Positions 4,230 through 58,924 of a stretch of 64,000 bases of DNA are shown one piece after another (the stretch's first letter is position 1; each line of letters begins with the position of its first letter). The stretch comes from Bdellovibrionales bacterium. Its GTDB lineage: Bacteria; Bdellovibrionota; Bdellovibrionia; Bdellovibrionales; UBA1609. Under the pieces are notes generated by a model. That model saw only the letters and a program-made list of their open reading frames with translations. It did not search any database and was not told the DNA's origin. The DNA lies in the NCBI GenBank assembly GCA_028819305.1, contig JAPPLY010000069.1, positions 1,628 through 65,627 of the forward strand, written 5' to 3'. Position numbers and translations under genes: made by a program.

Positions 4230-5624
4230 TTAAACATCCATTATTAAACGGATAGGGTCTTCCACGCATTCTTTGATTTTCAGTAAAAAACCGACAGACT
4301 CTTTTCCATCCACCAGGCGATGATCGTAAGATAAAGCTATATACATCATCGGTTTAATTTGTATTTGTCCATCTACAACAACAGGTCTTTCTTCAATTTT
4401 ATGCATGCCTAAAATCCCGCTTTGGGGAGGGTTTAAAATAGGTGTGGACATAAGGGATCCAAAGACCCCTCCGTTGCTAATGGTAAAAGTCCCTCCCATC
4501 AAATCGTCTGGGCTAATTTTACCATCCCGTGCCTTTTCCGCATAAAAGAGAACGGCTTTTTCCAATTCCGCCATTCCTTTGTGATCGGCTTCGTGAATAA
4601 CGGGAACAACTAAACCTCTATCTGTACTGACAGCTACTCCTATGTGGCAGGAGTGATTATACACCATCTCATCTCCTTCAATAAAGGCGTTCACCCTAGG
4701 GAAAGCTTGTAAAGCATGAATTGTTGCTTTGATAAAAAAACCCATGAAACCAAGTTTAACCTGGTGTCTTTTTTGAAAAGCTTCTTTATATTGAGCACGC
4801 AGATTTATTACTTTGGACATATCAATTTCGTTGAAAGTAGTAAGAGTGGCTGTGCTTTGCTGAGACTTTACAAGTCGTTCAGCAATTCGTTTTCGGATGG
4901 TGCTCATTTTCTTGCGTGTTGTTTTATACTGAGCTTGTTTGAATGTCGTGGCTTCTGTATTCTTATGGGGAAGGAACGGAGTGCGAAGAGTGCCAATTCC
5001 TGACCTGTCCGGTATATTTGATGGAGGTTTTTCGGAAGGGGAAGAGGTGGTTTTGGAAGCCCGGTTTTGGATAAAGGACAGTACATCTCCTTTTGTAATA
5101 CGACCGCCAGGCCCCTGACCTGTAATATGATCTGGATTGAGCTTGTTTTCCGTTATGAGTTTTCTAACAGACGGGGAAAGGTTTTGGTTCATGGAGTGCA
5201 AAGATGATTTTTGAGTTGAGGTATTGGGTTTATCTTTTTTCAGGAAGTTATCTATAAGTGTTTTATCAGAGGGTAATGCTTGTTTTTCCTGATTTTGGGA
5301 TGGAGAATCAAAAGTTGTATGGCTATTTGAGTTAGAAAGAGCTTTTTGAGTTTGTGTTGGTTGTTCTTTTTCTAAAGCAGGAGGTGATATAGAGGTGTCC
5401 AGTTCAGCAATCACTTCACCTACTTTTACATCCTCTCCTTCTTGTTTGAAAATATTGAGCTGACCACTTTGTTCTGCTACCAGATCCATAGAGGCTTTGT
5501 CTGTCTCCATGACCACTAATACTTCATTTTGTTTGACATAATCGCCATTTTTCTTTTGCCATTCACCAATGGTGGCTTCGGTAACAGATTCCCCCACAGA
5601 GGGAACTTTGATTTGTTGTTTCAT
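4230..5624 (-). CDS. sucB: 2-oxoglutarate dehydrogenase E2, dihydrolipoyllysine succinyltransferase
   Basis: 464 aa. Lipoyl domain METDKAS, E3-binding domain SPSVRKL...[11 protein letters not shown], catalytic DHRLVDG, SucB-like C-terminus [10 protein letters not shown]. Long Ser/Thr/Gln-rich linkers. Confidence 0.88.
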
Positions 5625-5747: not shown

Positions 5748-5860
5748 CTTCAGAAAAGAATAAGACTCAAAAAGTTCAGACATGCGTTTTGCTACAGAGC
5801 AACTTTCAGCCGCTCTGTAGCAAAGCCGAACTCACTTTTGAGTCTTATTCTTTTCTGAAG
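5748..5860. mobile_element. T3 palindromic MITE-like element, copy b (113 bp)
   Basis: Outer arms CTTCAGAAAAGAATAAGACTCAAAAGT / ACTTTTGAGTCTTATTCTTTTCTGAAG. Inner arms GCTACAGAGC / GCTCTGTAGC. Confidence 0.85.
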
Positions 5861-5887
5861 AATTGTTATCCTCATTTATGTGAAACA

Positions 5888-10210: not shown

Positions 10211-11506
10211 TCATAAAAATAGTTGATTGCGCCAAAGGGTGGCTGAACGGGCGGGGCCGACGGAAACCATATCCACCGGTACACCCGATTCTTGTTGGAT
10301 AAAGGTGATATAGTGTTGAGCCGCTTTTGGTAAATCTTTAAATTTTTTAATGGAGGAAATATCTTCTTGCCAGCCAGGTAAAATTTTATAAACGGGTTTA
10401 TACGAAGTTAACTCAGAGGAGTGTATAGGGTAGTTAGGGACTACCTTTCCGTTTAGTTGATAGGCTACACAGATAGGGATTTCTTTCATGTCAGAAAGCA
10501 CATCCAGTTTCATTAAGGCTAAATGAGTAATGCCACTGACGCGAACAGCGTACTTAAGCGCGGGCAGGTCCAGCCAACCACACCTTCTCTTTCGACCGGT
10601 GGTAGCCCCCCATTCTTCCCCTTTTTTTTGTAAAAAAATACCTTGCTTATCCTGGCATTCTGTAGGGAAAGGCCCTCCTCCTACTCTGGTGGTATAAGCT
10701 TTAGTAATGGCGATCACTTTTTTAATAAAGCCTGGTCCAATACCTGATCCCACTAAGGCGGCTCCTGCTACTGTATTGGAGCTGGTAACATAAGGGTAAG
10801 TGCCATGTAAAATATCCAGAAGGCTGCCCTGGGCCCCTTCAAAAAGGACTTTTTTGTTTTCTGTTAAAGCTTTATGGATAATAAAGGAGGTATCCTGACA
10901 ACGGTAGGGTCTTAGCTCTTCTCTTAAAAAAAGAATCTGTTTTAAAGTGTTTTCTAAAGAAATGGCTTTTTCTTTATAAAATTTTTCAATTAGGAAATTT
11001 TTCTCACTTAAGGCACGCTCTAGTTTATGTTTTAATATTTTCTCATCTAAAAATAAATCTCTGAATAACAAAGCTTTGCGGGAGGCTCTATCTTCATAAG
11101 CCGGGCCAATTCCTTTTCCAGTGGTGCCTATTTTTTCAGCCCCTTTTTCGCGAGCCTGGTCCAATACTTTATGATAGTCTAATAACACCGTGGCCGAATC
11201 CGAAATAAGAAGCTTTGAAGAATCGCTTAAACCATCCCCGGATTCTTTAATAGCTTGTATTTCAGAAACTAAAGTTTCCATATCCAAAACAACACCGGCA
11301 CTAATCACACAGATCGTGTTGGAATGGAAAACTCCAGAAGGAATAAGATGCAGGACTTTTTTTTGTCCGGCAATATTTAATGTATGACCGGCATTTGATC
11401 CCCCCTGGTAACGAATCACATAATCCGCTGTAGAGGAAAAAACATCAACCGCTTTTCCTTTTCCTTCGTCTCCCCATTGGGAACCTATTACAATAACACC
11501 TGACAC
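10211..11506 (-). CDS. purA: adenylosuccinate synthetase
   Basis: 431 aa, GTG start. GSQWGDEGKGK P-loop, TTGKGIGPAYEDR, GATTGRKRRCGWLD. Confidence 0.95.
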   Translation of the reverse strand: MSGVIVIGSQWGDEGKGKAVDVFSSTADYVIRYQGGSNAGHTLNIAGQKKVLHLIPSGVFHSNTICVISAGVVLDMETLVSEIQAIKESGDGLSDSSKLLISDSATVLLDYHKVLDQAREKGAEKIGTTGKGIGPAYEDRASRKALLFRDLFLDEKILKHKLERALSEKNFLIEKFYKEKAISLENTLKQILFLREELRPYRCQDTSFIIHKALTENKKVLFEGAQGSLLDILHGTYPYVTSSNTVAGAALVGSGIGPGFIKKVIAITKAYTTRVGGGPFPTECQDKQGIFLQKKGEEWGATTGRKRRCGWLDLPALKYAVRVSGITHLALMKLDVLSDMKEIPICVAYQLNGKVVPNYPIHSSELTSYKPVYKILPGWQEDISSIKKFKDLPKAAQHYITFIQQESGVPVDMVSVGPARSATLWRNQLFL

Positions 11507-14055: not shown

Positions 14056-14139
14056 TATGTTTTGTTGTATTTGTACTCCGTTGGTTTGAATTTTTATGTT
14101 GTTTTTTATGATGGTAGTGGTCTTTTCAGGAAAAAATCA

Positions 14140-15039
14140 ATGAAACCTTATCTTTTTGTTCCGGGAAAGTACAAAAAACCTTCTTTAGTATCTCCAGAAG
14201 GTAGGATGACTTACTTTCATAAATCGCATAAAATCAAAGATCCTACGTGTCTTCCTTCTCGTGCTATTTTATGTTTTTGGGATGGCTTGGCTCGGTCTCT
14301 TAAAAAAAGAAAGGACTTTCAAAAAAGTCTTTCTGTTCACGAAACGGGTGGTTTGCATGTTGATTTATACCGAACAGGTCAAGAAAACGCGCCCTCCAAA
14401 CTCCGTTCGTCCTCGGGAAGAAGTTTACAGAAACGACAAAACTCAAACCCGATCAGTATATATAAACCGCAGAGTGCGGCACAGTCTGCATCTGTTGCTG
14501 TAGTGAGCCGTTTTGGGATAGGCGCTCCGGCAGGAGTGGTGTGTTTAGAGAACTTGCGCGCTTATGGAGTAAAGGAGTTTATAAGTGTGGGTCTCGTGGG
14601 CTCTCTAAATTCAAATTTAAAATTAGGTTCCAAAGTGCTAATCAAAAAATCTTTTAGAGGGGAAGGATGTTCTTATCACTATAGAGCCCCCTTTCCTTAT
14701 GTTGAAATGTCAGAGAGTGAAGAGAGGGGTATGTATTTAAAATTGATTAAAGAATTAAAATTAAAACCAGTCGTTAGTTGGACTACAGACGCGCCTTTTA
14801 GAGAAACAAAAGAAGAGGTGCTGTATTTTCAATCTAAAGGCGTAGAGTGTGTGGAAATGGAAGCTTCCGCTTTGATGGCTGTAGGGGAATATTACGGTGT
14901 GTCTGTCTTTTGTCTAGGTGTCGTATCGGATCACCTTTCTCCTGAAGCTTGGACTCCAGGGTTTTTTGATCCTTCTGTTAAAAAGAGTTTGTCTGAACTC
15001 CTTAATAAGATATTGTTTTTATATACTGATTTTGTTTGA
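14140..15039 (+). CDS. nucleoside phosphorylase-family protein (PNP/UDP_1 superfamily) carrying an in-frame T1 insertion
   Basis: RFGIGAPAGVVCLENLRAYGVKEFISVGLVGSL, WTTDAPFRET and VECVEMEASAL fit the phosphorylase superfamily. Start moved to ATG 14140 (MKPYLF). The last 6 codons plus stop lie in a T1 terminus. Confidence 0.55.
   Translation: MKPYLFVPGKYKKPSLVSPEGRMTYFHKSHKIKDPTCLPSRAILCFWDGLARSLKKRKDFQKSLSVHETGGLHVDLYRTGQENAPSKLRSSSGRSLQKRQNSNPISIYKPQSAAQSASVAVVSRFGIGAPAGVVCLENLRAYGVKEFISVGLVGSLNSNLKLGSKVLIKKSFRGEGCSYHYRAPFPYVEMSESEERGMYLKLIKELKLKPVVSWTTDAPFRETKEEVLYFQSKGVECVEMEASALMAVGEYYGVSVFCLGVVSDHLSPEAWTPGFFDPSVKKSLSELLNKILFLYTDFV
14366..14462 (+). mobile_element. T1 MITE-like element inserted in frame within CDS 14140..15039
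   Basis: TATACCGAACAGGTCAAGAAAACGCGC...GACAAAACTCAAACCCGATCAGTATATA. The left 27 nt align with 61836-61862 (TATACCGATCGGGTTTGAAAATCGCGC). Encodes YRTGQENAPSKLRSSSGRSLQKRQNSNPISIY. Confidence 0.7.
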
Positions 15040-29606: not shown

Positions 29607-32366
29607 ATGCTCATCAGAATGTACCATTTTATACAAATTTTGTTTAAAAATTTTAAAAGCTTGGCTAAAAAGCGGAAAAGGCCGGGAAGTTACAAAAAAA
29701 TAATACCCATTTTGTCTATTTTTATCTTTTTAGCTTTGCCCGTGATGGGGGCTTATAGCCTGGAAAACAAAAAATCAGCCCAAAAATCTTTTCCGAAATT
29801 TATTGGTAATAAACCTACAAAAAACCCCACTTTTCCTCAGTACATTGGTAAAAAACCTAAAGATGTTAAAACATTTCCTGAGCTTATTGGCAAAAAAACG
29901 GGGGTGGAACTGCAAGAGGCAAAACCGGAAGACATTACATCTAATAACTACCCTGATGTACTTGACGGTATTGGGGTGGTCAATTGGGAATTAAGCAAAG
30001 TTATAAAACTTATGAGTGAATACTTCCAGATTAAAATTATTATGGATCCTAGTATAGGTAGCCAGAAAATAAGCATTATTTCCTACACTCCCATTACGGT
30101 TGCTGAAGTTTATCAAGCTTTTTTATCTGCTCTGGCTATCCACGATCTGACAGTGATTCGTACTGGTTCTTTCTTAAAAGTGGTTAAAACAGAAGTAGCT
30201 TTAAAAAGCAATTTAAGAGTTTACGAAGGGAACAAAAAAATTAATACGGATCAGTTTCTTACCAGTATTATCAAATTAAAAAATATTAGTGCGGCCTCTT
30301 TGGAAGCAAAAATGAAACCTTTTATTGATGCAAAGGCCGTAAAGTCCCTTATTTTCTATCCTCCTTCCAATGCCGTCATTATTTCTGATTACGGTTTAAA
30401 TGTCGAGAGGATCAGAAAAATTATTAAGAGTTTAGATGTTCCCAGTAAGGATTTTATTTTTAAAGTCTTCCCCATTAAACATGCCAGAGCAGAAACACTG
30501 GTCAAAATCATTAACAACTTGTTGCCAACAGGAAACCGGCCCGCCTACTCCTATCGGAGAGCCTCCGCAAAAAAAACACAGTCCCAACAATTTGTCAACA
30601 TCAGCGCTCTTTCTTCTGATGAGAGAACCAACTCTATTATAGTTATGGGAAATAAATCCGGCATTGATAAAGTGCAAGAGCTTATAAAGGAATTAGATTA
30701 TTATAAAGACCCTGAATTAGCGGGAGGAATTTATGTTTATAAAGTGAAGCATGGAACAGCGGAGGAGTTAGCAACGACTTTAAACGATCTCATTGGCAAC
30801 ACTTCTTCTTCAAAAGAAACAGCACAAAAAAATATGCTTAAATCTTCTAACACTCCCGCTTCAAGAAGAGGGGGAGGTAGTTCTTCAGCATCAAACTTAC
30901 AAGATGTTAATACGGCACAATCTTTTCAAGATGTGCGAATCATAGCTGAAAAAAACACAAACAGCCTGCTTATTGTGTCTAATAAATACAATTATGAAAC
31001 AATATTGAATATTTTGAAAAAAGTGGATATTTCCAGAAATCAAGTGTTTGTAAAGTCTATTATTATGGAGCTTAGTACACAAAAAAGCAATGACTGGCAG
31101 ATGGCCAATTATTACTTTCCAGAAACAGGGGAAGGAATAGTGCGTATGGGGTATGGAATAAAAAAACTAACAGATATAGGTTCTCCTGGAGGAGCCACTC
31201 TCTTTTTTCCTCTCTCCCTTCTTAATATATCCAAAAGCACCACGACGGACATAACTAATTTTGCAAACTTAAATAACCTAGATATAAAAAAGGATTTAAA
31301 AATACCTACTCTATCTTCTTTTATAAATTTTTTACAAACAAATGTAGGAGCTAATATTCTTTCCACTCCCCAGGTTATGGCTTTAGATCATCAACAAGCA
31401 GAAGTAAAAATTACAGAGCATATTCCTATACTGGGAGAAAGAACCACGCAAACTAATATCGCTAATCAGTTCACTGTATCCGCCGGCAAAGAGACGGTGG
31501 AAACATCTCTCATTATTACACCTCATATTAACCCTGATGTGAACTCCATTCGTTTAGAAATTGAGCAAAAAATTGATAATATATCTAAAGAAGCGGAAGT
31601 GCCTGAAGCTCTTAGAGATTTTGGTGTAGCTGTAAAGAAAAGAACTATTAAAACTTTTATTAATTTAAAAGACCAAGAAACAGCTGTCTTAGGTGGCCTA
31701 GTAAAAGAAACCAACAGTAAAGTAAATTCAAAAATTCCCATTTTAGGAGATATTCCCATCATAGGTTGGCTATTTAAAAATTCTGAAACAGATAGAAAAA
31801 AATCCAACTTAATTGTATTTATCACACCTTATATTATTCGCTCGGCGAAAGGGCATAAAACAATCTTAAGTCGCAAATTAAAAGAGAGAATGGATTTTAT
31901 TCGTCAATTCACCGGTAAGAAAGACCCTCATCGAGAGTTAATTGAAAAAATGCGACCAACTGAACTGAACTCCCTAGAGGACTTCTCCACCTATGGGGAA
32001 AGATCTTCATGGAGTAAGGAAAAAGCTTTAAGAGAGGAAGAGGATTTACCTTACATGGATGACGACTATTATGAAGAAGATGTCATCCCTCCTGATATGG
32101 AAGCTAAGGAAACAAAGCCCGATCAACCGGTGGAGGAACGGATTAGAAATATACCAAATACAGATGAACCTGTCAGGGACGATTACTATGATGATGCTGA
32201 TTTAACTCCACCTGATGATATGTCCTCCATATCTGATACGCCCTCCATAGATGATTCGGAAGACTCTCCAGAGGAGGAGAACCAGCCTGATATGGACAAC
32301 CTGATCCCTTCAGATATAGACTCCATAGATGAGGTACCTTCAGAAGAAAAAGCACCGCCACTATAA
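29607..32366 (+). CDS. gspD: type II secretion system secretin with unusual N- and C-terminal extensions
   Basis: 919 aa. N0-like VNWELSKVIKLMSEY..., secretin core ending PILGDIPIIGWLFKNSETDRKKSNLIVFITPYIIRS. Three 14-aa repeats at 29787-29903. Acidic tail of about 130 aa. Confidence 0.85.
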   Translation: MLIRMYHFIQILFKNFKSLAKKRKRPGSYKKIIPILSIFIFLALPVMGAYSLENKKSAQKSFPKFIGNKPTKNPTFPQYIGKKPKDVKTFPELIGKKTGVELQEAKPEDITSNNYPDVLDGIGVVNWELSKVIKLMSEYFQIKIIMDPSIGSQKISIISYTPITVAEVYQAFLSALAIHDLTVIRTGSFLKVVKTEVALKSNLRVYEGNKKINTDQFLTSIIKLKNISAASLEAKMKPFIDAKAVKSLIFYPPSNAVIISDYGLNVERIRKIIKSLDVPSKDFIFKVFPIKHARAETLVKIINNLLPTGNRPAYSYRRASAKKTQSQQFVNISALSSDERTNSIIVMGNKSGIDKVQELIKELDYYKDPELAGGIYVYKVKHGTAEELATTLNDLIGNTSSSKETAQKNMLKSSNTPASRRGGGSSSASNLQDVNTAQSFQDVRIIAEKNTNSLLIVSNKYNYETILNILKKVDISRNQVFVKSIIMELSTQKSNDWQMANYYFPETGEGIVRMGYGIKKLTDIGSPGGATLFFPLSLLNISKSTTTDITNFANLNNLDIKKDLKIPTLSSFINFLQTNVGANILSTPQVMALDHQQAEVKITEHIPILGERTTQTNIANQFTVSAGKETVETSLIITPHINPDVNSIRLEIEQKIDNISKEAEVPEALRDFGVAVKKRTIKTFINLKDQETAVLGGLVKETNSKVNSKIPILGDIPIIGWLFKNSETDRKKSNLIVFITPYIIRSAKGHKTILSRKLKERMDFIRQFTGKKDPHRELIEKMRPTELNSLEDFSTYGERSSWSKEKALREEEDLPYMDDDYYEEDVIPPDMEAKETKPDQPVEERIRNIPNTDEPVRDDYYDDADLTPPDDMSSISDTPSIDDSEDSPEEENQPDMDNLIPSDIDSIDEVPSEEKAPPL
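29787..29903 (+). repeat. three tandem 42-bp (14-aa) repeats in the gspD N-terminus
   Basis: SFPKFIGNKPTKNP / TFPQYIGKKPKDVK / TFPELIGKKTG. Confidence 0.75.
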
Positions 32367-38967: not shown

Positions 38968-39087
38968 TATACCCATAGGGTATATTATTTTTCCGTAACT
39001 TCTTGGCTCTTTCCTCCGGGGCAGCTAAGCCTTTAACTCCGACATTTTCAAACCTTGTCCTCGCGAAAGCGGGGAACGACCGGTATA
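38968..39087. mobile_element. T1 MITE-like element (core plus CCTCGCGAAAGCGGGG module)
   Basis: TATACCCATAGGGTATATTATTTTTCCGTAACTTC...CATTTTCAAACCTTGTCCTCGCGAAAGCGGGGAACGACCGGTATA. Lies 17 bp upstream of the DUF3450 start. Confidence 0.85.
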
Positions 39088-45419: not shown

Positions 45420-46934
45420 CTAACCATTTACTGTTTTTAATAACTCTGAGGGGGAGTAACAAGATTGGGAACGAACGGATAAGATACAACTTAGATAAGC
45501 TAGAAAAAAGATACAAGCAAACAGTCCGAACATAAATATGAAATTAAACTCCACGGGAAATTGAGCCCCGGCGTGAAATTGAGATAAAATAGGAATACGG
45601 GAGTATTTGAGAAATAAGCAAATAAACAAACTAAAAACCCAGGCTCCCAAAATTCCAAATGAGCATAATAACAATCCCATTTTCACAAACAAGCTCTGTA
45701 CTTTTTGCACTGGCATCCCTATAGCCATTAAAGCTCCTATCTCCTTTTTTTTCTGAACCATCAATAAAGCCAACAAAGAAGAAACAGCTAACAAAGTAAT
45801 AAGCCCCGCTAAGGATAAAAAAACGCTCATAATGATTTTTTCCACTTTCAAGGCGAGAAATACAGAGGAGTTTCTCTCTGGCCAGGCCTCTACGGAAAAC
45901 CCCTCTTTTTCCAACACTGTTTTATACGGCAAAAAATCTTCCGGTTCTGTTAAACTCATTTCAAAACCGGCATGGTAAGAACTATTTTTCCGAAAAGCAG
46001 GAAAATCTTTCCTGTTATAAAAAATGTAATTGGCATTCCATACTGCATTCTGAGTGGAAACAATAGACCCTATGTGAGCAGATTCAAATGGGATGGGTTC
46101 CCCTGGTGGAAGTAACAAATTTTCCGCTGGTATTAAATGTACTGTTTCCTCCTCGTATAAATCCAACTCACTCGCCAAACCGAAACCCAATACAATTTTC
46201 TTTTGTTCATCTTTATCTTCTTCCTTCTCCACTTCTTCTTTTTTTTCTTGAACGAAAAATAACTCTTCTTCTCCTAATCGAACCATCTTTAAATTCAGAA
46301 AGTCTTTTTTAGGCTTTTTATTATTTTTCTTCCCCGAATTATTCTGTTCCTGCTCTTCTTGAGCTTTTCCCTTCACCGAAATATGATCCAAAATATCCCC
46401 TTCCGTAGATAAAATAAAATCCCCTCTTATCTTTTGCAAAAAACTTTCTAACCAATAAGAATCGTAACCTCTAGCCACAGCTCCCGAAAACACGCCTTTT
46501 GGAGTTCGTATAACTATATCCACACTTTCAAAAAAAGAGAGGGAAATCACTTTCGAGTCTAGATCCTCCGATTTTAAAATTTTTTGAATCTTCTTTTTTT
46601 GTTCTTGAATATCCCCTTCCGGTATTATTTTTCCGGAATTTTCAAACCCGATCGGTACAAATTCATCAGTAAAAGAAATGTTTTCTTTATCCTGCTTCTT
46701 CTTTTCTAAAGAAATAATAATATGAGGTTCCGTTTCTAAAAATCGCTCTTTAATGGCCTGCCCTAATCCCCCCATAACATTAAATACAATCAATAAACTG
46801 CCAATAGAGATCACTAACCCTAAAAGACAAATAAAAGACACTCTTCGCACGACAGAATTGGCTCTTTTAGAAAAAAGATACCGATAAAAAAAAGTAAAAG
46901 CGGATAATGTACAAGGCAGCTTAACTTTAAACAA
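45420..46934 (-). CDS. FtsX-like ABC transporter permease, LolC/E-like, with Lys/Glu-rich insertion
   Basis: FFYRYLFSKRANSVVRRVSFICLLGLVISIGSLLIVFNVMGGL plus the C-terminal FtsX TM bundle. Start set at the TTG for ...LFKVKL, because the upstream 14 codons are a repeat element (GGAAACGGGGATCATCCCCGAGGGG). Confidence 0.6.
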   Translation of the reverse strand: MFKVKLPCTLSAFTFFYRYLFSKRANSVVRRVSFICLLGLVISIGSLLIVFNVMGGLGQAIKERFLETEPHIIISLEKKKQDKENISFTDEFVPIGFENSGKIIPEGDIQEQKKKIQKILKSEDLDSKVISLSFFESVDIVIRTPKGVFSGAVARGYDSYWLESFLQKIRGDFILSTEGDILDHISVKGKAQEEQEQNNSGKKNNKKPKKDFLNLKMVRLGEEELFFVQEKKEEVEKEEDKDEQKKIVLGFGLASELDLYEEETVHLIPAENLLLPPGEPIPFESAHIGSIVSTQNAVWNANYIFYNRKDFPAFRKNSSYHAGFEMSLTEPEDFLPYKTVLEKEGFSVEAWPERNSSVFLALKVEKIIMSVFLSLAGLITLLAVSSLLALLMVQKKKEIGALMAIGMPVQKVQSLFVKMGLLLCSFGILGAWVFSLFICLFLKYSRIPILSQFHAGAQFPVEFNFIFMFGLFACIFFLAYLSCILSVRSQSCYSPSELLKTVNG

Positions 46935-47124
46935 AATTATACCCCTCGGGGATGATCCCCGTTTCCACAAGGACAAATTTTTCCACTCTTTTCATTCATA
47001 TCAATTTGAATCTTGTCCCTTAAATGAGTTGTTCTAACCATCCTTAATCAATGAGGATATTCCTTATTATAAATTAGGAAAATGAAAAGGCCAGTGAGAT
47101 TTTTATGCCTTTAAAACCTCATCC

Positions 47125-48423
47125 TTAATAAAATAAGTATTTTTTCATTTGTTCCTGCCAGAGTTTTTCATCAGCAGATAATTTTTCTTCCAATTCCATG
47201 ATAGAAGCACTTTGATCTGCAATCCAGTGTCTTAAAAAATCATCTCCTGATAAAATATCAATAGGTGGTTTTTCATACTCATACTCATAAGGGGGCGGAG
47301 CTATCCAATCAAAGTCTGGATGGTGTTTTTTAAGGCACTTAAGGAATAAACTAACCATTCGATAAGGATGGAAATCCTGTTCTTTGTAAAAAGGATCTTG
47401 AGCATAAATCCGAATGGCCGAGCAGATTTGATTTTGAAATTTGTCAAAGACCGGCTGGAAAAACTCTTCTCTTAATACACAACCCGTTAGCCACTGAGGA
47501 GCTATCTTAGCCATAGATTCTAAAATATTTTTCGTATTCATTTCAGGAAAGCCAAAAGCTTTTAAAGGAAAAACTGTTCCGCGTGCTTCAGATACTTTTG
47601 TTCCTTCTAATAAAACGGTGCCACTATAGCAACGGGCACATTCTTCATCTACCATATTAGGGCTGGGGAGCACCCAAGGTAAATCGTCTGGCCAGGCCTC
47701 TTTTTCCGGTTGATAACCTTTCATTTTTATTATTTCCAATTTCATATTCAATTTTTTTAAAGAGCAGTACCAATTTGCCGCTTCCGCTAAGGTTAGTCCG
47801 TGGCGGATAGGGAGAGGGGCTGCCCCTACAAAGCTTATAAACTTTTTATTTAGTATAGAACCTTCCACCTTTCTTCCGGCAGGATTAGGGCGATCCAGTA
47901 TCCATACCTCCTTACCGGCAGAGGAGCAATCCTCCAGGACATAAAAAAGGGTTGTTAAATAGGTATATACACGACAACCTACATCCTGTAAGTCCACTAT
48001 TAACACATCAAAATGAGAGAGCATTTCTTTTGTAAGCCTTCTGGTTTTACTGGAGTAAAGGCTGAAAATAGGGTAAGGGTTGATATTATTAGTGCTGGTG
48101 TAACTCTTTGAAGGTTTATTCAAATAAAACCCTTTGGATTTATCCTTTCTTATGGTTGTTCCCCTTGGGGATTCTCCCCAAGGAGACCCTGTTAGCTTAT
48201 CTTCTGTTGTAATCATATTAGCTTGTCTAGTGCTATTAAAACCATGTTGAGGACCAATAAGACAGTTTATTTTTAATGGTGTGTGGGAGGGGATGAGATC
48301 AAGAGAGTGTTGTAGATTTTGTGTTACAGAAGCTTGATGACCTAAGAAAGCAAGGCGGCTTTTTTCCAGACGACCTTGCCACTTTTTTTCTTTAATAAAA
48401 GATTCAATACCTAGTTCAAACAT
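47125..48423 (-). CDS. DUF1343-family protein (NamZ-like exo-muramidase family) carrying an in-frame repeat-element insertion
   Basis: 432 aa. PIFSLYSSKTRRLTKEMLSHFDVLIVDLQDVGCRVYTYLTTLFYVLE and ILDRPNPAGRKVEGSIL match the DUF1343 core. Confidence 0.8.
   Translation of the reverse strand: MFELGIESFIKEKKWQGRLEKSRLAFLGHQASVTQNLQHSLDLIPSHTPLKINCLIGPQHGFNSTRQANMITTEDKLTGSPWGESPRGTTIRKDKSKGFYLNKPSKSYTSTNNINPYPIFSLYSSKTRRLTKEMLSHFDVLIVDLQDVGCRVYTYLTTLFYVLEDCSSAGKEVWILDRPNPAGRKVEGSILNKKFISFVGAAPLPIRHGLTLAEAANWYCSLKKLNMKLEIIKMKGYQPEKEAWPDDLPWVLPSPNMVDEECARCYSGTVLLEGTKVSEARGTVFPLKAFGFPEMNTKNILESMAKIAPQWLTGCVLREEFFQPVFDKFQNQICSAIRIYAQDPFYKEQDFHPYRMVSLFLKCLKKHHPDFDWIAPPPYEYEYEKPPIDILSGDDFLRHWIADQSASIMELEEKLSADEKLWQEQMKKYLFY
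48073..48186 (-). mobile_element. composite palindromic element (T1-like hairpin plus T4 core) inserted in frame in the DUF1343 gene
   Basis: Coding strand CCTTGGGGA-GAA-TCCCCAAGG GGAACAACCATAA...AAATCCAAAGGGTTTTATTTGAATAAACC. Encodes SPWGESPRGTTIRKDKSKGFYLNKPSKSYTSTNNINPY between the conserved TG and PIFSLY. Confidence 0.7.
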
Positions 48424-48688: not shown

Positions 48689-49945
48689 ATGATGTTTTTT
48701 AAAGGTATCTTACTTATTTTACTATTAATGACGGTTGGATGTGTTCGTAATGAGGAAAAACGGGACGAAGATAAAGAAAAAGTTTTTGATCTTTGTCATT
48801 TCCCTAATAGTCTTAAACAAGCTGTTGTAAAAAAACTAAAAAAGAAATGTGAATCTGTCATTCCAGAAGACATAATTGATATTACTCATTTAAAAATAAA
48901 AAATGTCAGTGAACAGGATACAAAATTATTAAGTAAAAAATATGCTATGTATTTTTTAACTCTTGAAGAGTTGGATATATCAGATAATCCTAATATGCTA
49001 TCTCTTCCAGAATTTGTGATTTATCTGCCTAAATTAAAAAAGTTAGATATTTCAAAAACAGGAATTAAGAGTTTCCATCAAGAGATATCTCGTCTGGACA
49101 CCCTCACAGTATTGATAGCCTCTCACAATCATTATGAGAATCAGGAACCTCCTCTGGCGGTTTTTTCTCTCATTAATTTAAAGGTATTGGATATGTCTTA
49201 TAGCTCTATTCATTATATTGATGAGTATATTTATAAGCTAGAGAATTTAGAAGAGTTGTATCTAGCCGGGAATCAGTTAATGGTGGTTCCTTTTATGTTG
49301 CATATAATGCCTAGTCTATTACTGGTGGATTTAAGGGATAATAATTTTCATTCTCCTTCGGGATTAGAGTCTATGTTTGGTGGTGATTCATTAAATACTC
49401 TATATACATGTAAGGATGTTAATGACGACTCGGATAGGGAATCATGCCAGGAAGATATGTTAGAGAACTTCAAATGTGAGTGGTGGTATGAACTCCCTTT
49501 TAAAAGAGGAAAACCTTTTAGAAGGTATAAGGAAATGACAGATGAGGAGTTTGAAGTTTCTTTTAGGCTAGATGGTAAACATAGATGTTACTTATGGTGG
49601 CTCAATACTAAGTACATGTCTCTTACAGATAATGAGAAGGCTGCTTATCTTGAACATACTATTAATGGGAAGACCCATCGGGAATTACAGGTACTCCTTC
49701 CAGCAATGATAGAACATTGGGGAGGTTGGTATGGGTTAAAAGCTATGATTGGTATTTGTGAATATAGAATACTGTTTGCGGATACATCATATCATGTTGA
49801 TAGCCAGGAAGTTTTTCCTGAAGATTATTATGCAGAAAAATGGATTGAATATCCTGAGGAATGTGAGATGGATTTACATCTGTATCAGGATCACCCTTTA
49901 TATGAACAGTGGGTTGAGCAACTTAACAATCAGAAGACAAATTAA
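48689..49945 (+). CDS. leucine-rich-repeat lipoprotein
   Basis: 418 aa, lipobox LMTVGC. About 6 LRRs (LEELDISDNPNMLSLP, LKKLDISKTGIKSF, LKVLDMSYSSIHYI, LEELYLAGNQLMVVP, LLLVDLRDNNF). Trp/Cys-rich orphan C-domain. Confidence 0.75.
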   Translation: MMFFKGILLILLLMTVGCVRNEEKRDEDKEKVFDLCHFPNSLKQAVVKKLKKKCESVIPEDIIDITHLKIKNVSEQDTKLLSKKYAMYFLTLEELDISDNPNMLSLPEFVIYLPKLKKLDISKTGIKSFHQEISRLDTLTVLIASHNHYENQEPPLAVFSLINLKVLDMSYSSIHYIDEYIYKLENLEELYLAGNQLMVVPFMLHIMPSLLLVDLRDNNFHSPSGLESMFGGDSLNTLYTCKDVNDDSDRESCQEDMLENFKCEWWYELPFKRGKPFRRYKEMTDEEFEVSFRLDGKHRCYLWWLNTKYMSLTDNEKAAYLEHTINGKTHRELQVLLPAMIEHWGGWYGLKAMIGICEYRILFADTSYHVDSQEVFPEDYYAEKWIEYPEECEMDLHLYQDHPLYEQWVEQLNNQKTN

Positions 49946-50016
49946 CCTAATGTAAAAATAGGTGCTGAGTTTATAAATAAGGAAAATCTACTGAGGATGA
50001 GGAAAAGAGGTAGTAT

Positions 50017-53000
50017 ATGTTTCAGATAGTAAAAATATTCAACCTCAAGTTATTGTTACGGTTGGTTCTGTGTACTCAATTGTGTTTGAGTCCTTATTAT
50101 GGGTATTCAGCGGACAGTCCTGACAATTCTGACAACCCGACTGAGAAGAAAAGCTTTCCTTTGACAGGAGAGAGCACAGAGCAAGAAGAAGAGGCCAATG
50201 TTCGGAGACTTTTACAAGAACAGCAGGAGGAACTCAGAACGGAATATGGAGATAACCCGCGAATATGGAAAAAAATAGAGGCTGTCAATAAATTAGCTGC
50301 AGCTATTGATTTAGGAACAGTGAACGAATATCTTGCTGCCCATCCAGAAGTAAAGAAGGAAGCACAGAATCTTTTTCTTTTTGCTGACCAGACAGTGGAG
50401 TCTATTGAATATCATTTTGACTCTAAGACAAATAGGTTTATACAACAGGTGGGAGAAACTCTTAGGTTTAACGATTCTGCCAGCCATCCTATTCCTGTTA
50501 TATTCAATAATATCAAAGTTCGATATAATAAAAAATCCAGAGAATTGATTTTTGAGGGGATACTGCAAAAAAATATAAGAGGTACAGTGGAGGAACAGGT
50601 GGTCGTGCGTCATCGTGTTCCTGATATGGATATTATAAACTATGCCAATGATAGAGAGATGTTAGCTATTGTGGATCAGAAAAAAGGCTTGCTTTTAGTG
50701 GATATGGTGTTTGTGGAAGCTCACCTCAGTAGAACTCCTATTCCCTTTACAAAAGTTTATGTGCCAATACTGGAAAATTTAGAACAAAAAATAGCATCAG
50801 ATTCAAAAAAAGGTGTTGTTGATGTTGAGTTTGTTAATGAAAGTGTTCGTCGTCCTGATATAGCACCGGAATATATGGAAGCTATGGAAAAAACCTTTGA
50901 AGGTCGTTCTTTTGTTACTGCTGGTGACTTAATGATTTCCTATACAGATTCTAATAAACAAAAGCATCTTGTTCAATTTCTAAAAAGAACGGATATGGCA
51001 AGTTGGTTGAAAATGGAATTCTCGGTATTGAATATGATGATCAATACAGTAGCCCCCTACCTCATGGATGCAGAAGAGTTAAAACGCTTTGCTGAAGAAA
51101 AAAGAGATTTTCAGGCTAGGGGTGATAATAATGAACAACGAGAGAGTGGACAAAAAGAAGAAAGAATATTGTTAGATTACATGTTGTCCGGTTTTTTTAC
51201 TTCTGAATCCATTCAAAAATTGGTTCAAGCAAAAGGAGCTATAAAACAAAGAAGTGAACAGTTATCTAATTTATCTGAACGGGAAATTATATTGTACGAT
51301 GAGTGGGAACAGAATTTTAAGAAGATATCCAGGCGGATCAACTCTCTTAAAAGAAATCCCTCTAAAAGAACTGATCTGCGGGAGGCAGGTTTATCTGCAA
51401 AGGTAAGTCAGAGCGTGGTAGAACGTAAATCCATCGGGAATGTGTTTACAACAGGGGATATATTTACCTTATCCTCTAAAGGATACCCTTCTAAAGAAGA
51501 AGAAAGTAAAAAAGAGATAAGAAATAAGGCTCTTCGATGGATTGCCAGTAAATCTAAACCCGGATGGGAGTTTGTAAAAGAAAAGAAGGTGGAATTAGGT
51601 ATCGGGGCGGTTCTCTTTTTAACGGCAGGTTATTTTATGTCGAAGAAGCTTACTTATACTGATGGAGTTGCATTTTACACAACAACGACACTTCCTCATC
51701 TGCTTATTGTAGGGACATTGCTTCCGGTTTTATTCTATTCGATGGCTCGTTATTATCCTGATGCTATGGAAAAAACAAAGATTTTTTATGATGCTAAAAT
51801 AGGTAAGATGGATTCCTGGGCAAGAGAGTTTATGCAAAAATCTGTAGAAAGATGGAAAGACACAGGGTATCATCATAGGTTGGCTAATTGGGGAGCGAGA
51901 ATTGTTTCTTTTGGTATGCTTCCCTTTTGGATTCGTATTACAGAATGGATGGGGCAACCTCATTTTTTTCCGGCTTTACAAAAAAAACTAAAAGTATTTG
52001 ATAAAATTTCCCCGGATTCGGATATTGGTCAAATTGTAGGTCTTAAGAAAGACACAGCTCTTGGTATTTCCAACTTTCAGTGGAATAGAAGTAGTAAAGA
52101 CTTTGTTACACATGAACATTTACAAAATGTAGCTCAAGAGAAACAGTTTCGTATGCAGTCCATTGCCTGGTTAATGGCTACCTTAGCTGTTACGCAGGCA
52201 GAAGGTGTGAGTCCGGCGGAAATTCTTATATATGGAGTCAGTAATTTTGATTTAGATGCGGTAATAAGAGCGCAAAAAGATGCTGAGTTACGATCTGAAT
52301 TATTATGGGTAATGAAGAATTTGTATGCGGAAATAGAAAAAAAGAATGAACTAGATATGCGAAAAGAACTGGCAGAGTTGGATCCAAAAATTCTAACAAC
52401 CTATTATGAAGAAGCCAAACAATTAGCTCAGAAATTTCATGCTTCTCCTAATAAAAAGAAGATTCGGAAAATGGTTTATAATATAACACAACTTATTGAT
52501 AAAACTCCTTTAGGGTATCTTCGTCATCCTCGTAATATCGCAACTCTTAATATGGTTGAAAGTGATCTCTTACGAAGAGTACCAACTGATTTCGTAGCGG
52601 AAAGAGTTGTATTAGAATTTTTGATGGATCACTTAGTAGTTATTTTTATGCCTCTTGTTGCGACAGGGCGAGCTGACATTAATTTGGAAACTATGACGAG
52701 GGATATGTCAATATATGCAAATAAATTTGCCTTTACCGGGGAAGCTCATCTTCAGGATGTGTGGTTGAATGTTATAATTCATTTTTTTTTAGCTGCTGGT
52801 CAACGTAGTTTGCTTTTTACCCAATCAGCGTCAGATATTCAAAAAATTCACAAAAAATATGCTGGTGTTTATGAGCCAAAAGGAAAATTTTTACATGGAA
52901 TAGAAGATAAAGAGAATAGAATACGAGATGAATTTAAATCTCTTTTTTCATATCTTAAAATGCGAGGGGAATCTGACGCCAGTAAAGGTTATCCAAATAA

Positions 53001-53823
53001 TTTTGGTGACCTCATGTGGAAGGATTGGAAGACAAGAACTAAAATGTGGCAAATAGGAGCTATTTTGCACTCAAGCATGAGATGGGCTTTAACCGAACAA
53101 ACCTGGAGTCAAATCTTTTTTTCTTACCTGATAATAAACCTGGCGGGTGGAGCTATTAACGGATGGTGGATGTGGATTAATGGAGCTGCTCAATTAAATG
53201 ATGCAAAATTGATCGAGAACAGGGAAAGAATGGAAACATTACGGAATAAACTATATAAAATAAAACAGAAGTTACATACCAGTGAAAAGGATTTACATGC
53301 TTCTTATAAAAAGGTTTTGTTAGAAATAGTAGATCTGTATCGTAAAAATGGTTTGAAAAGAGAATTGCTTAAAGCAGTTGAAACAGTTAACCCTGCTTTA
53401 TTTTCTTATGTAAACCAATTGTCAAAGGCGGTTCAAGCGGAGTGGTCTATTCTTCAAAGTAAAGAAGAAATAACTCTTACAGCAGAGCGTCTGTTAATGT
53501 TAATTTCTAAAAATCCCCCCCTTCCCACAGAAAAAAGTAAGTTTTCTAGAAGTGCAATAGCGTTTGGTTTAGGAGGTATTGCTAGTACTATAGCAGCGGT
53601 GGAATTGATCATATACACTTTTGATCCTAACTATCTTAATTGGGGTACAGTAGGGGTGTTAGCAGCTAGTGTCTTTTCCATTTATATAGCTTTATGGTGG
53701 GGTTATAAAAAGTATGATCTAAAATGGAGAACCTACTTCTATGAAAGAGCGTTGGGTTTAGGTAGAGGAGTGAGAAATGTTTGTCGTCGAGCTTTTAACA
53801 ATCCTATGTCAGCGAGAGAATAA
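50017..53823 (+). CDS. very large hypothetical polytopic membrane protein
   Basis: 1268 aa. Signal-like N-terminus, soluble region of about 520 aa, then at least 8 hydrophobic segments interspersed with coiled-coil-like stretches. No motif recognised. Confidence 0.6.
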   Translation: MFQIVKIFNLKLLLRLVLCTQLCLSPYYGYSADSPDNSDNPTEKKSFPLTGESTEQEEEANVRRLLQEQQEELRTEYGDNPRIWKKIEAVNKLAAAIDLGTVNEYLAAHPEVKKEAQNLFLFADQTVESIEYHFDSKTNRFIQQVGETLRFNDSASHPIPVIFNNIKVRYNKKSRELIFEGILQKNIRGTVEEQVVVRHRVPDMDIINYANDREMLAIVDQKKGLLLVDMVFVEAHLSRTPIPFTKVYVPILENLEQKIASDSKKGVVDVEFVNESVRRPDIAPEYMEAMEKTFEGRSFVTAGDLMISYTDSNKQKHLVQFLKRTDMASWLKMEFSVLNMMINTVAPYLMDAEELKRFAEEKRDFQARGDNNEQRESGQKEERILLDYMLSGFFTSESIQKLVQAKGAIKQRSEQLSNLSEREIILYDEWEQNFKKISRRINSLKRNPSKRTDLREAGLSAKVSQSVVERKSIGNVFTTGDIFTLSSKGYPSKEEESKKEIRNKALRWIASKSKPGWEFVKEKKVELGIGAVLFLTAGYFMSKKLTYTDGVAFYTTTTLPHLLIVGTLLPVLFYSMARYYPDAMEKTKIFYDAKIGKMDSWAREFMQKSVERWKDTGYHHRLANWGARIVSFGMLPFWIRITEWMGQPHFFPALQKKLKVFDKISPDSDIGQIVGLKKDTALGISNFQWNRSSKDFVTHEHLQNVAQEKQFRMQSIAWLMATLAVTQAEGVSPAEILIYGVSNFDLDAVIRAQKDAELRSELLWVMKNLYAEIEKKNELDMRKELAELDPKILTTYYEEAKQLAQKFHASPNKKKIRKMVYNITQLIDKTPLGYLRHPRNIATLNMVESDLLRRVPTDFVAERVVLEFLMDHLVVIFMPLVATGRADINLETMTRDMSIYANKFAFTGEAHLQDVWLNVIIHFFLAAGQRSLLFTQSASDIQKIHKKYAGVYEPKGKFLHGIEDKENRIRDEFKSLFSYLKMRGESDASKGYPNNFGDLMWKDWKTRTKMWQIGAILHSSMRWALTEQTWSQIFFSYLIINLAGGAINGWWMWINGAAQLNDAKLIENRERMETLRNKLYKIKQKLHTSEKDLHASYKKVLLEIVDLYRKNGLKRELLKAVETVNPALFSYVNQLSKAVQAEWSILQSKEEITLTAERLLMLISKNPPLPTEKSKFSRSAIAFGLGGIASTIAAVELIIYTFDPNYLNWGTVGVLAASVFSIYIALWWGYKKYDLKWRTYFYERALGLGRGVRNVCRRAFNNPMSARE

Positions 53824-54443: not shown

Positions 54444-54489
54444 TTTAATTACCTCACATTTATTTAAGGCTAGGACAAGTTAAACTTTT

Positions 54490-54608
54490 TAGTTTGCCTA
54501 AATAAAACCCTTTGGTTTTATCTTCATTTTTTTTAATATTTTCAGTTGTTTTTTTATTTCTTTCCATGACTGTTTTCCTTTTAGGTTTGTCTAAATAAAG
54601 CTCTTTGG
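54490..54608. repeat. two direct copies of the T4 core in the purK-purE spacer
   Basis: TAGTTTGCCTAAATAAAACCCTTTGGTTTTATC and TAGGTTTGTCTAAATAAAGCTCTTTGGATTTAA. Same core as 48120-48150 and, in reverse complement, 1755-1783. Confidence 0.7.
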
Positions 54609-54610
54609 AT

Positions 54611-55726
54611 TTAAAGAAATTTCTTTTTAAAGTCCAAAAGTGTAGTAAGAGCTTTTGTAGAAGTGCTGTTTAAGCTGTTGAGATGCCCCATTTTTCTACC
54701 AATCCGGGTTTGCATTTTACCATACCAGTGCAGTGTTGTTTCTGCCGGGGGAAGCCATTGACTGGATGTCTTCTGCCCCAGCAGATTTAACATGGCAAAG
54801 CCTCCAGAAAGTTTTTTAGGAGGGGATATGTTCATATTTAAAACCGCTTTAATATGAAGTGTAAATTGGTCTTCACTGAGGGCATCCATAGAGTAATGAC
54901 CGGAATTATGAACCCGTGGAGCTATTTCGTTAACCAATAGCCCTTGTTTTGTTTCAAATAGCTCAAAGGCCATCACACCATCATAAGAGATTTGATTCAG
55001 CATATTTTTTAATTTTTTTACCAAAGAATCTTTTTTTTGATGTCGGCAGGGGCCTTTTACCCAAAGGCAACATGCTTCTTCCTGATAAGTTTCCACTAAG
55101 GGAAGCTCCACAATTTGTTCTTTTCTGTTTCTCACCAGGATAATAGCCAGTTCCTTTTTAAAAGGTATTAATTCTTCTGCAATAAGGTGAGGATTTTTAT
55201 CTATAAACTCCTTGGCTGTATCCTCCTTTGCAATATTTTTTACAATTAAAGTGCCGTAGCCATCATAGCCTTGATGTCTTTTTTTTAAAACAAAACCCTT
55301 TGGAAATAAACTGGTCAGGTCTTTTATTTGTTTAGAAGAATCTATTTCAATAAAACGAGCGGTGGGGATTTTATATTTTTTCAACAGATTTTTTTGATTT
55401 AAACGATCCTGTAAAAGATTCATAATTTTTGGTTGAGGGTGAACAGGTGTGTCACTGGCGATGGAAGCTTCATGCAAAATGGTGGGATCTATAAATTCAT
55501 TTTCAAATACAGCCAAATCCACCTTATTTAAAAAATTTTTTATGTCTCTTTTTGTGTTTGGATTCCCTTGTACAAAATCAGAAGTAACCTGGGCAGCGGG
55601 ATCTTGGGGATGGGAACTAAGAATATAAGGTTTTATGCCCATTTCATGGCATCTTAGGGCCATCATTCGAGCTAATTGCCCTCCTCCTAAAATACCTAAT
55701 CGGACTTTTGAAAGTCGGTTTTTCAT
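54611..55726 (-). CDS. purK: N5-carboxyaminoimidazole ribonucleotide synthase
   Basis: 371 aa. ILGGGQLARM, ATP-grasp body, EIAPRVHNSGH. Confidence 0.9.
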   Translation of the reverse strand: MKNRLSKVRLGILGGGQLARMMALRCHEMGIKPYILSSHPQDPAAQVTSDFVQGNPNTKRDIKNFLNKVDLAVFENEFIDPTILHEASIASDTPVHPQPKIMNLLQDRLNQKNLLKKYKIPTARFIEIDSSKQIKDLTSLFPKGFVLKKRHQGYDGYGTLIVKNIAKEDTAKEFIDKNPHLIAEELIPFKKELAIILVRNRKEQIVELPLVETYQEEACCLWVKGPCRHQKKDSLVKKLKNMLNQISYDGVMAFELFETKQGLLVNEIAPRVHNSGHYSMDALSEDQFTLHIKAVLNMNISPPKKLSGGFAMLNLLGQKTSSQWLPPAETTLHWYGKMQTRIGRKMGHLNSLNSTSTKALTTLLDFKKKFL

Positions 55727-56122: not shown

Positions 56123-56221
56123 TATACCCAGTGGGCATTATTTTTTCATAACTTCCCGGCCTTTCTCCCTTATTAGACAAGCTTTTAAACCTGAAATTTT
56201 CAAACATAATCGGGTTATATA
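56123..56221. mobile_element. T1 MITE-like element, core form (99 bp)
   Basis: TATACCCAGTGGGCATTATTTTTTCATAACTTCCCGGCC...GCTTTTAAACCTGAAATTTTCAAACATAATCGGGTTATATA. Ends 2 bp from the permease stop. Confidence 0.85.
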
Positions 56222-58821: not shown

Positions 58822-58924
58822 CTCTTCCGTTTAGTTTGAAATATGGGAAGAAGCCTCTTTAGAATAGTCGCTTTGTGTCAAAACGCATATCTAAACCTTT
58901 TGTTTCTTATTCGCCCTGGAAGAG
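58822..58924. mobile_element. T3 element, copy c (one arm degenerate)
   Basis: Terminal CTCTTCC / GGAAGAG. GTCGCTTTGTGTCAAAACGCATATCTAAACCTTTTGTTTCTTATTC aligns with 1885-1935. Lies 9 bp upstream of the EVE start. Confidence 0.65.

Follow-up and report, generated by a model that had tools for sequence, protein, structure and literature searches.

A probable fragment of the T4 repeat translated within a variable loop of a NamZ-like protein from an uncultured Bdellovibrionales bacterium

How does an enzyme of a conserved family come to carry, in the middle of its reading frame, DNA that is also found between genes? This question is raised by a gene encoding a DUF1343 protein of the cell-wall-recycling type, related to the exo-beta-N-acetylmuramidase NamZ and located in a 64,000-nt stretch (hereafter the window) of contig JAPPLY010000069.1, which belongs to a metagenome-assembled genome (MAG) of an uncultured Bdellovibrionales bacterium. 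An earlier reading made from the letters alone (the sequence-only reading) had proposed that the conserved core of this protein is interrupted by 114 bp built from two repeat modules, a hairpin and the core of a repeat called T4. The data presented here indicate that a fragment of T4 was very probably inserted without loss of frame into a permissive loop of the enzyme, in an ancestor common to the window MAG and to the genome encoding the orthologue P0002, and that it is now carried as a neutral passenger.

The protein matches both Pfam domains of the family above their gathering thresholds (NamZ_N, 210 bits for a cut-off of 26.9; NamZ_C, 114.8 bits for a cut-off of 25), the match to NamZ_N being split in two stretches because of the insert. 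All the family-invariant residues are present in the open reading frame (ORF), and the database entry with exactly this sequence is MDE0119744.1 (contig of 67,954 nt), titled 'MAG: DUF1343 domain-containing protein [Bdellovibrionales bacterium]'. An AlphaFold2 (AF2) model built on an alignment of 68 sequences (mean predicted local distance difference test score, pLDDT, of 89.6; predicted template-modelling score, pTM, of 0.88) has a predicted fold close to those of 4K05 (TM score 0.86, E=3e-27) and 4JJA (TM score 0.83), i.e. the two-domain fold of DUF1343 proteins.

The inserted DNA amounts to 32 codons, roughly (L)TGSPWGESPRGTTIRKDKSKGFYLNKPSKSY(T), its ends at 48099 and 48194 being uncertain by a few nucleotides. 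It is found in the window and in P0002 (locus L001) and is absent from P0003 (locus L002), the closest orthologue without insert, as well as from P0026, P0038 and P0004-P0009. The loci L019 and L020, which have the same local gene order as the window, also lack the 96 nt and carry a different loop of 23 residues instead. As the sequence-only reading supposed, DUF1343 proteins are normally continuous at this site: the solved structures 4JJA and 4K05 read D-S-K-T-G-V-P-I-L-S-L-Y without any interruption. The spacing between PxHG and P(V/I)xSLY is 20-22 residues in 79 of 120 homologues and reaches 56 residues in the window protein and P0002; outside this pair, the insert is missing from every distant homologue and also from close relatives. 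The 38 residues quoted by that reading (SPWGES...NINPY) are indeed encoded at 48073-48186, and the existence of an insertion stands. Its boundaries had to be moved, as about 26 nt of the proposed 114 bp belong to the native loop and the inserted DNA is 96-nt long. Of the three sense frames of the insert, one only is open and it is the frame used. Since 96 is a multiple of three and the frame used contains no stop codon, the gene stayed open; this single open frame is what a survival filter would leave.

The 3' two-thirds of the inserted DNA belong to T4, a family whose core, ATAAAYCCAAAGGGTTTTATTTG, consists of a hairpin of 6-8 bp followed by a T-rich tail and whose units of 56-62 nt are often arranged in direct arrays. 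The core within the NamZ-like gene lies at 48113-48141. An nhmmer profile was built from 21 intergenic copies, the NamZ inserts being left out; the window supplied some of these copies (1680-1992 and 54480-54631) and the others were taken from CBDETO010000005.1, which belongs to a related genome (L004-L007), where they were collected by a pattern scan run over contigs of genomes other than the window's own MAG. The profile matches the insert at 48121-48154 with 23.5 bits (E=2.1e-6 in the window), and its top match in L001 is the orthologous insert (14.9 bits). The background is set by a chance match of 16 nt in purK (E=0.01), which is conserved in L002. Pairwise comparisons link the insert to individual copies: 48121-48160 matches 1736-1775 over 40 nt (83%, repeat finder), and the T4 core of the insert matches 54500-54522 (22/23, E=3.5e-5) and 1752-1771 (19/20), close to the positions 54496-54525 and 1755-1783 proposed by the sequence-only reading. 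When the window is searched against itself by BLAST, this insert/intergenic pair is the sole match with E<=0.01 that joins an intragenic repeat to an intergenic one. The central claim of that reading, namely the in-frame translation of repeat DNA within a conserved enzyme, is borne out. Neither of the two findings by which that reading would have been refuted was obtained: distant homologues all lack the insert, as do close ones, and its T4 part matches intergenic copies significantly at the nucleotide level.

Insertions of T4 are polymorphic between relatives. In the window, the spacer between purK and purE (54444-54610) is 167-nt long and holds a block of ~141 nt with two T4 cores, which is not found in the corresponding spacer of L001, L019 and L020 (10-26 nt there); the first, upstream copy has taken the place of the purK end, so that the gene stops at a codon of T4. 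A RibD-like gene (L004 3976-4025, minus strand) likewise owes its ten C-terminal residues (NPKGVLMGEL) and its stop codon to a T4 copy, whose other open frame is used there. In CBDETO010000005.1, T4 cores occur in units of 60-62 nt, often in direct tandem arrays; no Rfam family matches the arrays. Genes of IS110-type transposases lie beside some arrays, in L002 and L004. A role of T4 as a strong intrinsic terminator is unlikely, as copies lie between the co-oriented purK and purE and also inside ORFs, and the stem of the NamZ copy has only 6 bp including a wobble pair.

T4 is also translated in a second, unrelated enzyme. In the related genome, a FadB-like enzyme (807 aa, with ECH and 3HCDH domains) carries a T4 array of 2.7 units (L007 2093-2254, CBDETO010000005.1), which is read in frame as ...ALLMF-KPKGFYLANSPGSSNSHNQN-KPKGFYLANSPGSSNSHNQN-KPKGFCLS..., and two FadB-like orthologues carry KPKGFYLGEPLKNSPF... 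and KPKGFYLNEPLKSYPSS... at the same site. The sequence KPKGFYL... is present at one site of the FadB-like proteins P0121, P0122 and P0123, which represent three related genomes, and absent from 12 other aligned orthologues. P0123 and P0002 belong to one assembly (ERZ25067975). P0122 (MDE0119173.1) shares an accession block with the NamZ-like protein of the window (MDE0119744.1) and, because of these neighbouring accession numbers, very probably originates from the same MAG as the window. The NamZ insert (48100-48141) and the FadB-like insert of L021 are identical at 36 of 42 nt over AAAYCCAAAGGGTTTTATTTRAATRAACCTTYAAAGAGYTAY, and this shared T4 subtype gives the peptides SKGFYLNKPSKSY and PKGFYLNEPLKSY in the two enzymes. 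When the whole NamZ-like protein is compared by BLASTP with the whole of P0123, this segment alone aligns (12/18 identical, E=9e-4). The two inserts use the same reading frame of T4 and have in common the peptide K(S/P)KGFYLN(K/E)P(S/L)KSY. The second host enzyme is the decisive added evidence for the repeat origin of the NamZ insert.

Within the protein, the insert begins ~18 residues past PQHG, in the loop that connects strand 2 (residues 52-57, ending in PQHG) to strand 3 (residues 118-121). It is placed in this loop because of low pLDDT and of the lack of predicted secondary structure, residues 83-111 of the AF2 model having a pLDDT below 50 and residues 61-117 forming no secondary structure. 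The insert is accordingly modelled as a disordered surface loop of 32 residues. Unrelated expansions of 10-50 residues are found at the same loop in 18 of 120 homologues. This loop is variable in length within the clade and not part of an invariant core, and the 'conserved core' of the sequence-only reading was an overstatement for this variable and predicted disordered site.

The recent evolution of the insert can be followed by comparing, in register, the genes of the window and of P0002. In the insert, amino acid identity is 41% and the first, second and third codon positions show 0.29, 0.32 and 0.44 differences per site; in the flanks, identity is 88-92%, with differences of 0.07-0.08, 0.03-0.04 and 0.15-0.31. 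Of 129 four-fold degenerate sites in the flanks, 40 differ (0.31), a rate that the insert matches at every codon position. This indicates that the flanks are under purifying selection and, because divergence equals the four-fold-site rate at all codon positions, that the insert drifts at the neutral rate.

The hairpin of the insert is present as the sequence-only reading had described it: the perfect 9-bp stem CCTTGGGGA-GAA-TCCCCAAGG lies at 48163-48183 and has 0 such matches in 100 shuffles. As RNA, it extends to 12 bp including one G-U pair (48160-48186), and the 111-nt fold around it reaches -28.9 kcal/mol (z=-2.3), the insert folding only locally. The P0002 orthologue lacks this hairpin (fold z-score -0.2). 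Between the window and P0002, this hairpin part (module 1) is 50% identical, i.e. diverges beyond the neutral rate (p=0.008), and the T4 part is 75% identical. In the window lineage, the perfect hairpin would be a secondary product, for instance of template switching or of conversion. The sequence-only reading had relied on a likeness between GGAACAACCATAA and 39070-39087, which does not exceed chance: the GTCCTCGCGAAAGCGGGGAA(CGACCGGTATA) GAAA-loop hairpin family, which includes 39057-39087, was made into a profile (11 copies) that has no match in the insert at E<=10, and the module was rejected as a member of this family. A by-eye likeness (17/22) of the module to 46930-46982 was not used as evidence. 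In the metagenomes of the Joint Genome Institute (JGI), the exact 21-mer of the hairpin is found on 7 contigs that represent one unrelated locus, with a small Cys-rich ORF and without T4.

Could the insert be functional nonetheless? It might form a new loop by the active-site cleft, acting in substrate access or partner binding, or its mRNA hairpin might have a regulatory role (pausing, RNase site or attenuation). Its position ~18 residues after the tip of strand 2, which bears the putative catalytic position (PMC8054146), would suit the first possibility and the strength of the window hairpin the second, and the frame and length of the insert have been kept in two lineages. However, an amino acid identity less than half that of the flanks and a divergence that is about equal across codon positions, at the rate of four-fold degenerate sites, are those of a passenger; the hairpin has not been conserved in P0002, the segment is predicted to be disordered and close relatives manage without it. 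A function of the insert is therefore improbable.

Even less probable, and largely refuted, is the explanation that the segment is a native, fast-evolving and indel-prone loop whose likeness to an intergenic repeat is due to chance or composition. The loop is indeed expanded by unrelated sequence in 18 of 120 homologues; two of these inserts, in L009 (55 aa) and L010 (28 aa), match neither their own 16-21-kb loci nor the T4 profile, and purK contains the 16-nt T4-like chance match that is conserved in L002. However, the profile E-value of the insert is four orders of magnitude better than that of this chance match, the T4 match runs over 40-42 nt, the same DNA and the same peptide are found in an unrelated enzyme and the closest relatives lack the 96 nt. 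As for a recurrent colonisation of the NamZ loop by repeats, it is unsupported, the inserts of L009 and L010 having no repeat match. An assembly artefact or a decaying pseudogene, which the metagenomic source of the genome and the frameshifted NamZ genes of the related long-read contigs L019 and L020 could suggest, hardly deserves consideration, since the insertion has the same site and length in two independent assemblies, the full-length ORF is open with every invariant residue of the family and the flanks are under purifying selection. The NamZ-like protein would be produced and active.

Several observations weigh against the insertion of a T4 fragment as described above, or at least against parts of it. 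First, the link to T4 covers no more than ~60 nt of the 96. A blastn-short search of the window and 11 related loci gives no significant match for the hairpin module; of the two repeat modules that had been proposed, T4 is upheld by its profile match and the hairpin, having no significant relative, is not upheld as a repeat. Marginal links to the 3' half of a preceding T4 unit are provided by ACAACCA (window) and by GCTTTACAG (P0002), with a shuffle p~0.01 each in 8 tests, and the 5' part of the insert may be the tail of such a unit, later remodelled. Second, as the loop is expanded by unrelated sequence in many members of the clade, two of which gave no repeat match, part of the extra length could be older loop sequence. 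Third, although a neighbour-joining tree weakly favours the window and P0002 as sisters, quartet counts for the window, P0002 and P0003 in the NamZ tree are close to a trichotomy, without resolution, and given this trichotomy a precise loss in P0003 may have occurred instead of a gain. Fourth, ATCAGAAAA..ACTCCAAAGG is common to the loop of P0004 (L011 10223-10276) and to the central part of the insert in P0002 (QKNSKG versus KENSKG); it could be the remnant of an older insertion followed by deletions, or else a chance likeness in A-rich sequence. Finally, inspection of the insert ends and flanks (48099-48194) reveals neither terminal inverted repeats (TIRs) nor a target-site duplication.

Taken as a whole, the history of the locus would be as follows. 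A fragment of a T4 repeat or array, belonging to a short interspersed or tandem family, would have inserted into the DNA encoding the loop between strands 2 and 3, in an ancestor common to the window MAG and to the genome of P0002; the event would be a gain there rather than a loss in P0003. As the frame was kept (96 nt, no stop codon), the product would have acquired a disordered surface loop of 32 residues. Since the split from P0002, the insert would have drifted along as a neutral passenger of a gene that otherwise remained under purifying selection. T4 would also have entered, in the same frame, a FadB-like enzyme in the same genome group. As T4 is thus found in the same frame in a second enzyme, the NamZ insert may be viewed as one case of a lineage-wide colonisation of coding loops by selfish repeats, similar to that carried out by the Rickettsia palindromic elements (RPEs).

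The sequence-only reading counted two conserved enzymes with translated repeats in the 64 kb, a count that is plausible. The window contains a PNP_UDP_1-type phosphorylase ORF (PNP-like) with an in-frame element of ~95 nt (~14366-14460) that has TIRs, TATACCGA...TCAGTATA, and matches 4925-5016 in the window (E=1e-7), L004 7292-7391 (E=7e-11) and also L005. This element is probably the 'first' in-frame insertion to which that reading referred. It is possible, if rather doubtful, that translated repeats of several families form in this clade a system of the Rickettsia kind, with at least three families (T4, a palindrome of ~110 nt and a TIR element of ~95-100 nt) in at least three enzymes (NamZ-like, FadB-like and PNP-like) of at least three genomes, T4 being read in the same frame in two enzymes and as a tandem array in one case.

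The FadB-like genes contain other repeats. In the gene of L007, a palindromic element of ~110 nt (~3070-3181) is read as ...VAKRMSEPFNS...; it further occurs between genes of the window (5749-5862, 1829-1927 and 58866-58901), and many copies surround IS110 transposase genes in L002 and L004. The FadB-like orthologue of L021, from the P0002 genome, has two more inserts of 49 and 38 aa (10475-10622 and 11036-11150), whose DNA matches repeat or intergenic sequence (L002 18197-18278, E=2e-12; several sites of the window, E~1e-3 to 1e-4).

Elsewhere in the window, the listed start of an FtsX/LolE-like ORF (45420-46976, minus strand) is a TTG located inside the hairpin repeat 46930-46982, and its first ~18 residues are probably untranslated; its orthologue in L001 lacks two internal segments, of 16 and 14 residues, that this ORF carries. 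Another repeat family is represented by an inverted pair of 67 nt (29652-29718 and 56123-56189, 82%), one arm of which lies in the first ~40 codons of an ORF of 919 aa (29607-32366), probably upstream of the true start. Between purE and the NamZ-like gene (48689-53823, plus strand), a leucine-rich repeat (LRR) protein and a protein of 1268 aa are encoded in the window, L019 and L020 and not in L001 or L002. Together with the SWIB, Sel1 and EVE-domain genes found nearby in relatives of the window, these two proteins hint at a host-associated lifestyle. The coordinates of the main features are given in Table 1.

Table 1. Features of the window related to the NamZ-like gene, its insert and the repeats discussed in the text
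Feature	Position	Strand	Basis or remark
NamZ/DUF1343-like gene	47125-48423	minus	intact reading frame, 432 aa
In-frame insertion, 96 nt = 32 codons	48099-48194	minus	three-way DNA alignment with L001 (P0002) and L002 (P0003)
T4-derived part of the insert, AACAACCA...ATAAATCCAAAGGGTTTTATTTGAATAAACCTTCAAAGAGTTAC	48100-48160	minus	nhmmer profile, repeat finder, FadB-like copy
Hairpin module TCTCCTTGGGGA-GAA-TCCCCAAGGGGA	48160-48186	minus	12 bp with one G-U; 9 perfect bp
Native loop codons STNNINPY	48073-48098	minus	NHINPY in P0003 and SANSISPF in P0002 at the same place
PQHG motif, tip of strand 2	48241-48252	minus	aligned to PEHG of 4JJA and 4K05
Three intergenic T4 copies (1680-1729, 1741-1795, 1939-1992)	1680-1992	plus	nhmmer E=8.5e-9, 8.6e-11 and 2.4e-10, only descriptive as the copies are part of the profile training set
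Two intergenic T4 copies (54480-54526, 54575-54631)	54480-54631	minus	nhmmer; purK-purE spacer
PNP_UDP_1-type phosphorylase ORF	14062-15039	plus	Pfam match begins at residue 144 only

The best-documented cases of selfish repeats that invade essential or conserved genes in frame are those of Rickettsia, and others may exist elsewhere (PMC10969869). The NamZ case brings together comparison with orthologues, a test against the neutral rate and a further host enzyme, in a lineage that is uncultured and phylogenetically distant. It is a warning to annotators that the split Pfam domains and odd loops of these MAGs are real, it provides a natural experiment on the tolerance of a loop beside an active site, and it offers a dated, drifting insert for studying the decay or the recruitment of such segments. 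If it is true that the elements favour coding-compatible frames and permissive loops, the clade would constitute a second, independent natural system in which selfish DNA seeds protein segments. The locus is an example of a phenomenon known from Rickettsia, here in an uncultured Bdellovibrio-like bacterium, and it may show only part of a larger set of translated repeats in this clade.

The host protein can be compared with the canonical NamZ (GH171), the exo-beta-N-acetylmuramidase of Bacillus subtilis, and with 4JJA and 4K05, with which it shares the two domains, the fold and most invariant residues. It differs from them by a Gln that replaces, in the whole clade, the putative catalytic Glu, by the lack of a signal peptide at the N-terminus of the ORF as read (by inspection) and by its variable loop between strands 2 and 3. 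Gln59 of PQHG, a motif found in 119 of the 120 closest homologues, stands in place of the conserved Glu of the family, i.e. the Glu of PEHG, which is taken here to be Glu92 of the B. subtilis enzyme from the published description of this enzyme and from its sequence. Glu92 is located at the tip of strand 2 and its catalytic role has only been proposed (PMC8054146). The whole PQHG clade may, to judge from its sequences, not consist of canonical muramidases.

Among bacterial repeats, the repetitive extragenic palindromic (REP) sequences and the bacterial interspersed mosaic elements (BIMEs) are imperfect palindromes of 20-40 nt with a GTAG or CGTC head, linked to the REP-associated tyrosine transposases (RAYTs) and extragenic by definition. 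T4 resembles them by its short hairpin core, its intergenic clusters or arrays and its position at gene ends. It differs from them in that its copies are direct and not alternating, its consensus lacks a GTAG or CGTC head and its NamZ copy is translated.

In-frame insertions are known for the RPEs (Ogata et al. 2000) and, less regularly, for MITEs (transposable elements of miniature size with inverted repeats) such as ERIC, BOX and Correia, both reviewed in PMC10969869. Like the MITEs that insert in frame (ERIC, BOX, Correia/NEMIS and cyanobacterial elements; PMC10969869), T4 is small, multi-copy, of non-coding origin and insertion-polymorphic, and its copies now and then fuse in frame to host ORFs or provide stop codons. 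Unlike MITEs, the NamZ insert has neither TIRs nor a target-site duplication, and no cognate transposase has been identified; in contrast, the PNP-like element does have TATACCGA...TCAGTATA ends.

The closest parallel in effect is with RPEs. T4, like them, is a short non-autonomous repeat that occurs both between genes and in frame in unrelated conserved enzymes, for which orthologues without the element exist; it is located in permissive surface regions and, being read in one frame, gives a recognisable common peptide in unrelated proteins. Its host genome is likewise small (~2 Mb), AT-rich, repeat-rich and possibly host-associated. The differences concern the host, a Bdellovibrionales MAG and not a Rickettsia, and the repeat itself: its unit has 56-62 nt with a hairpin of 6-8 bp, whereas an RPE is a palindrome of 100-150 bp overall, and it occurs in direct tandem arrays, one of which (2.7 units) is translated in the FadB-like enzyme. 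The palindromic family of ~110 nt found in these genomes is nearer to RPEs in form, and it is translated in a FadB-like enzyme, not in NamZ. The NamZ insert is thus RPE-like in its effect and stands outside the RPE family, from which host lineage, unit size, hairpin and arrays set it apart.

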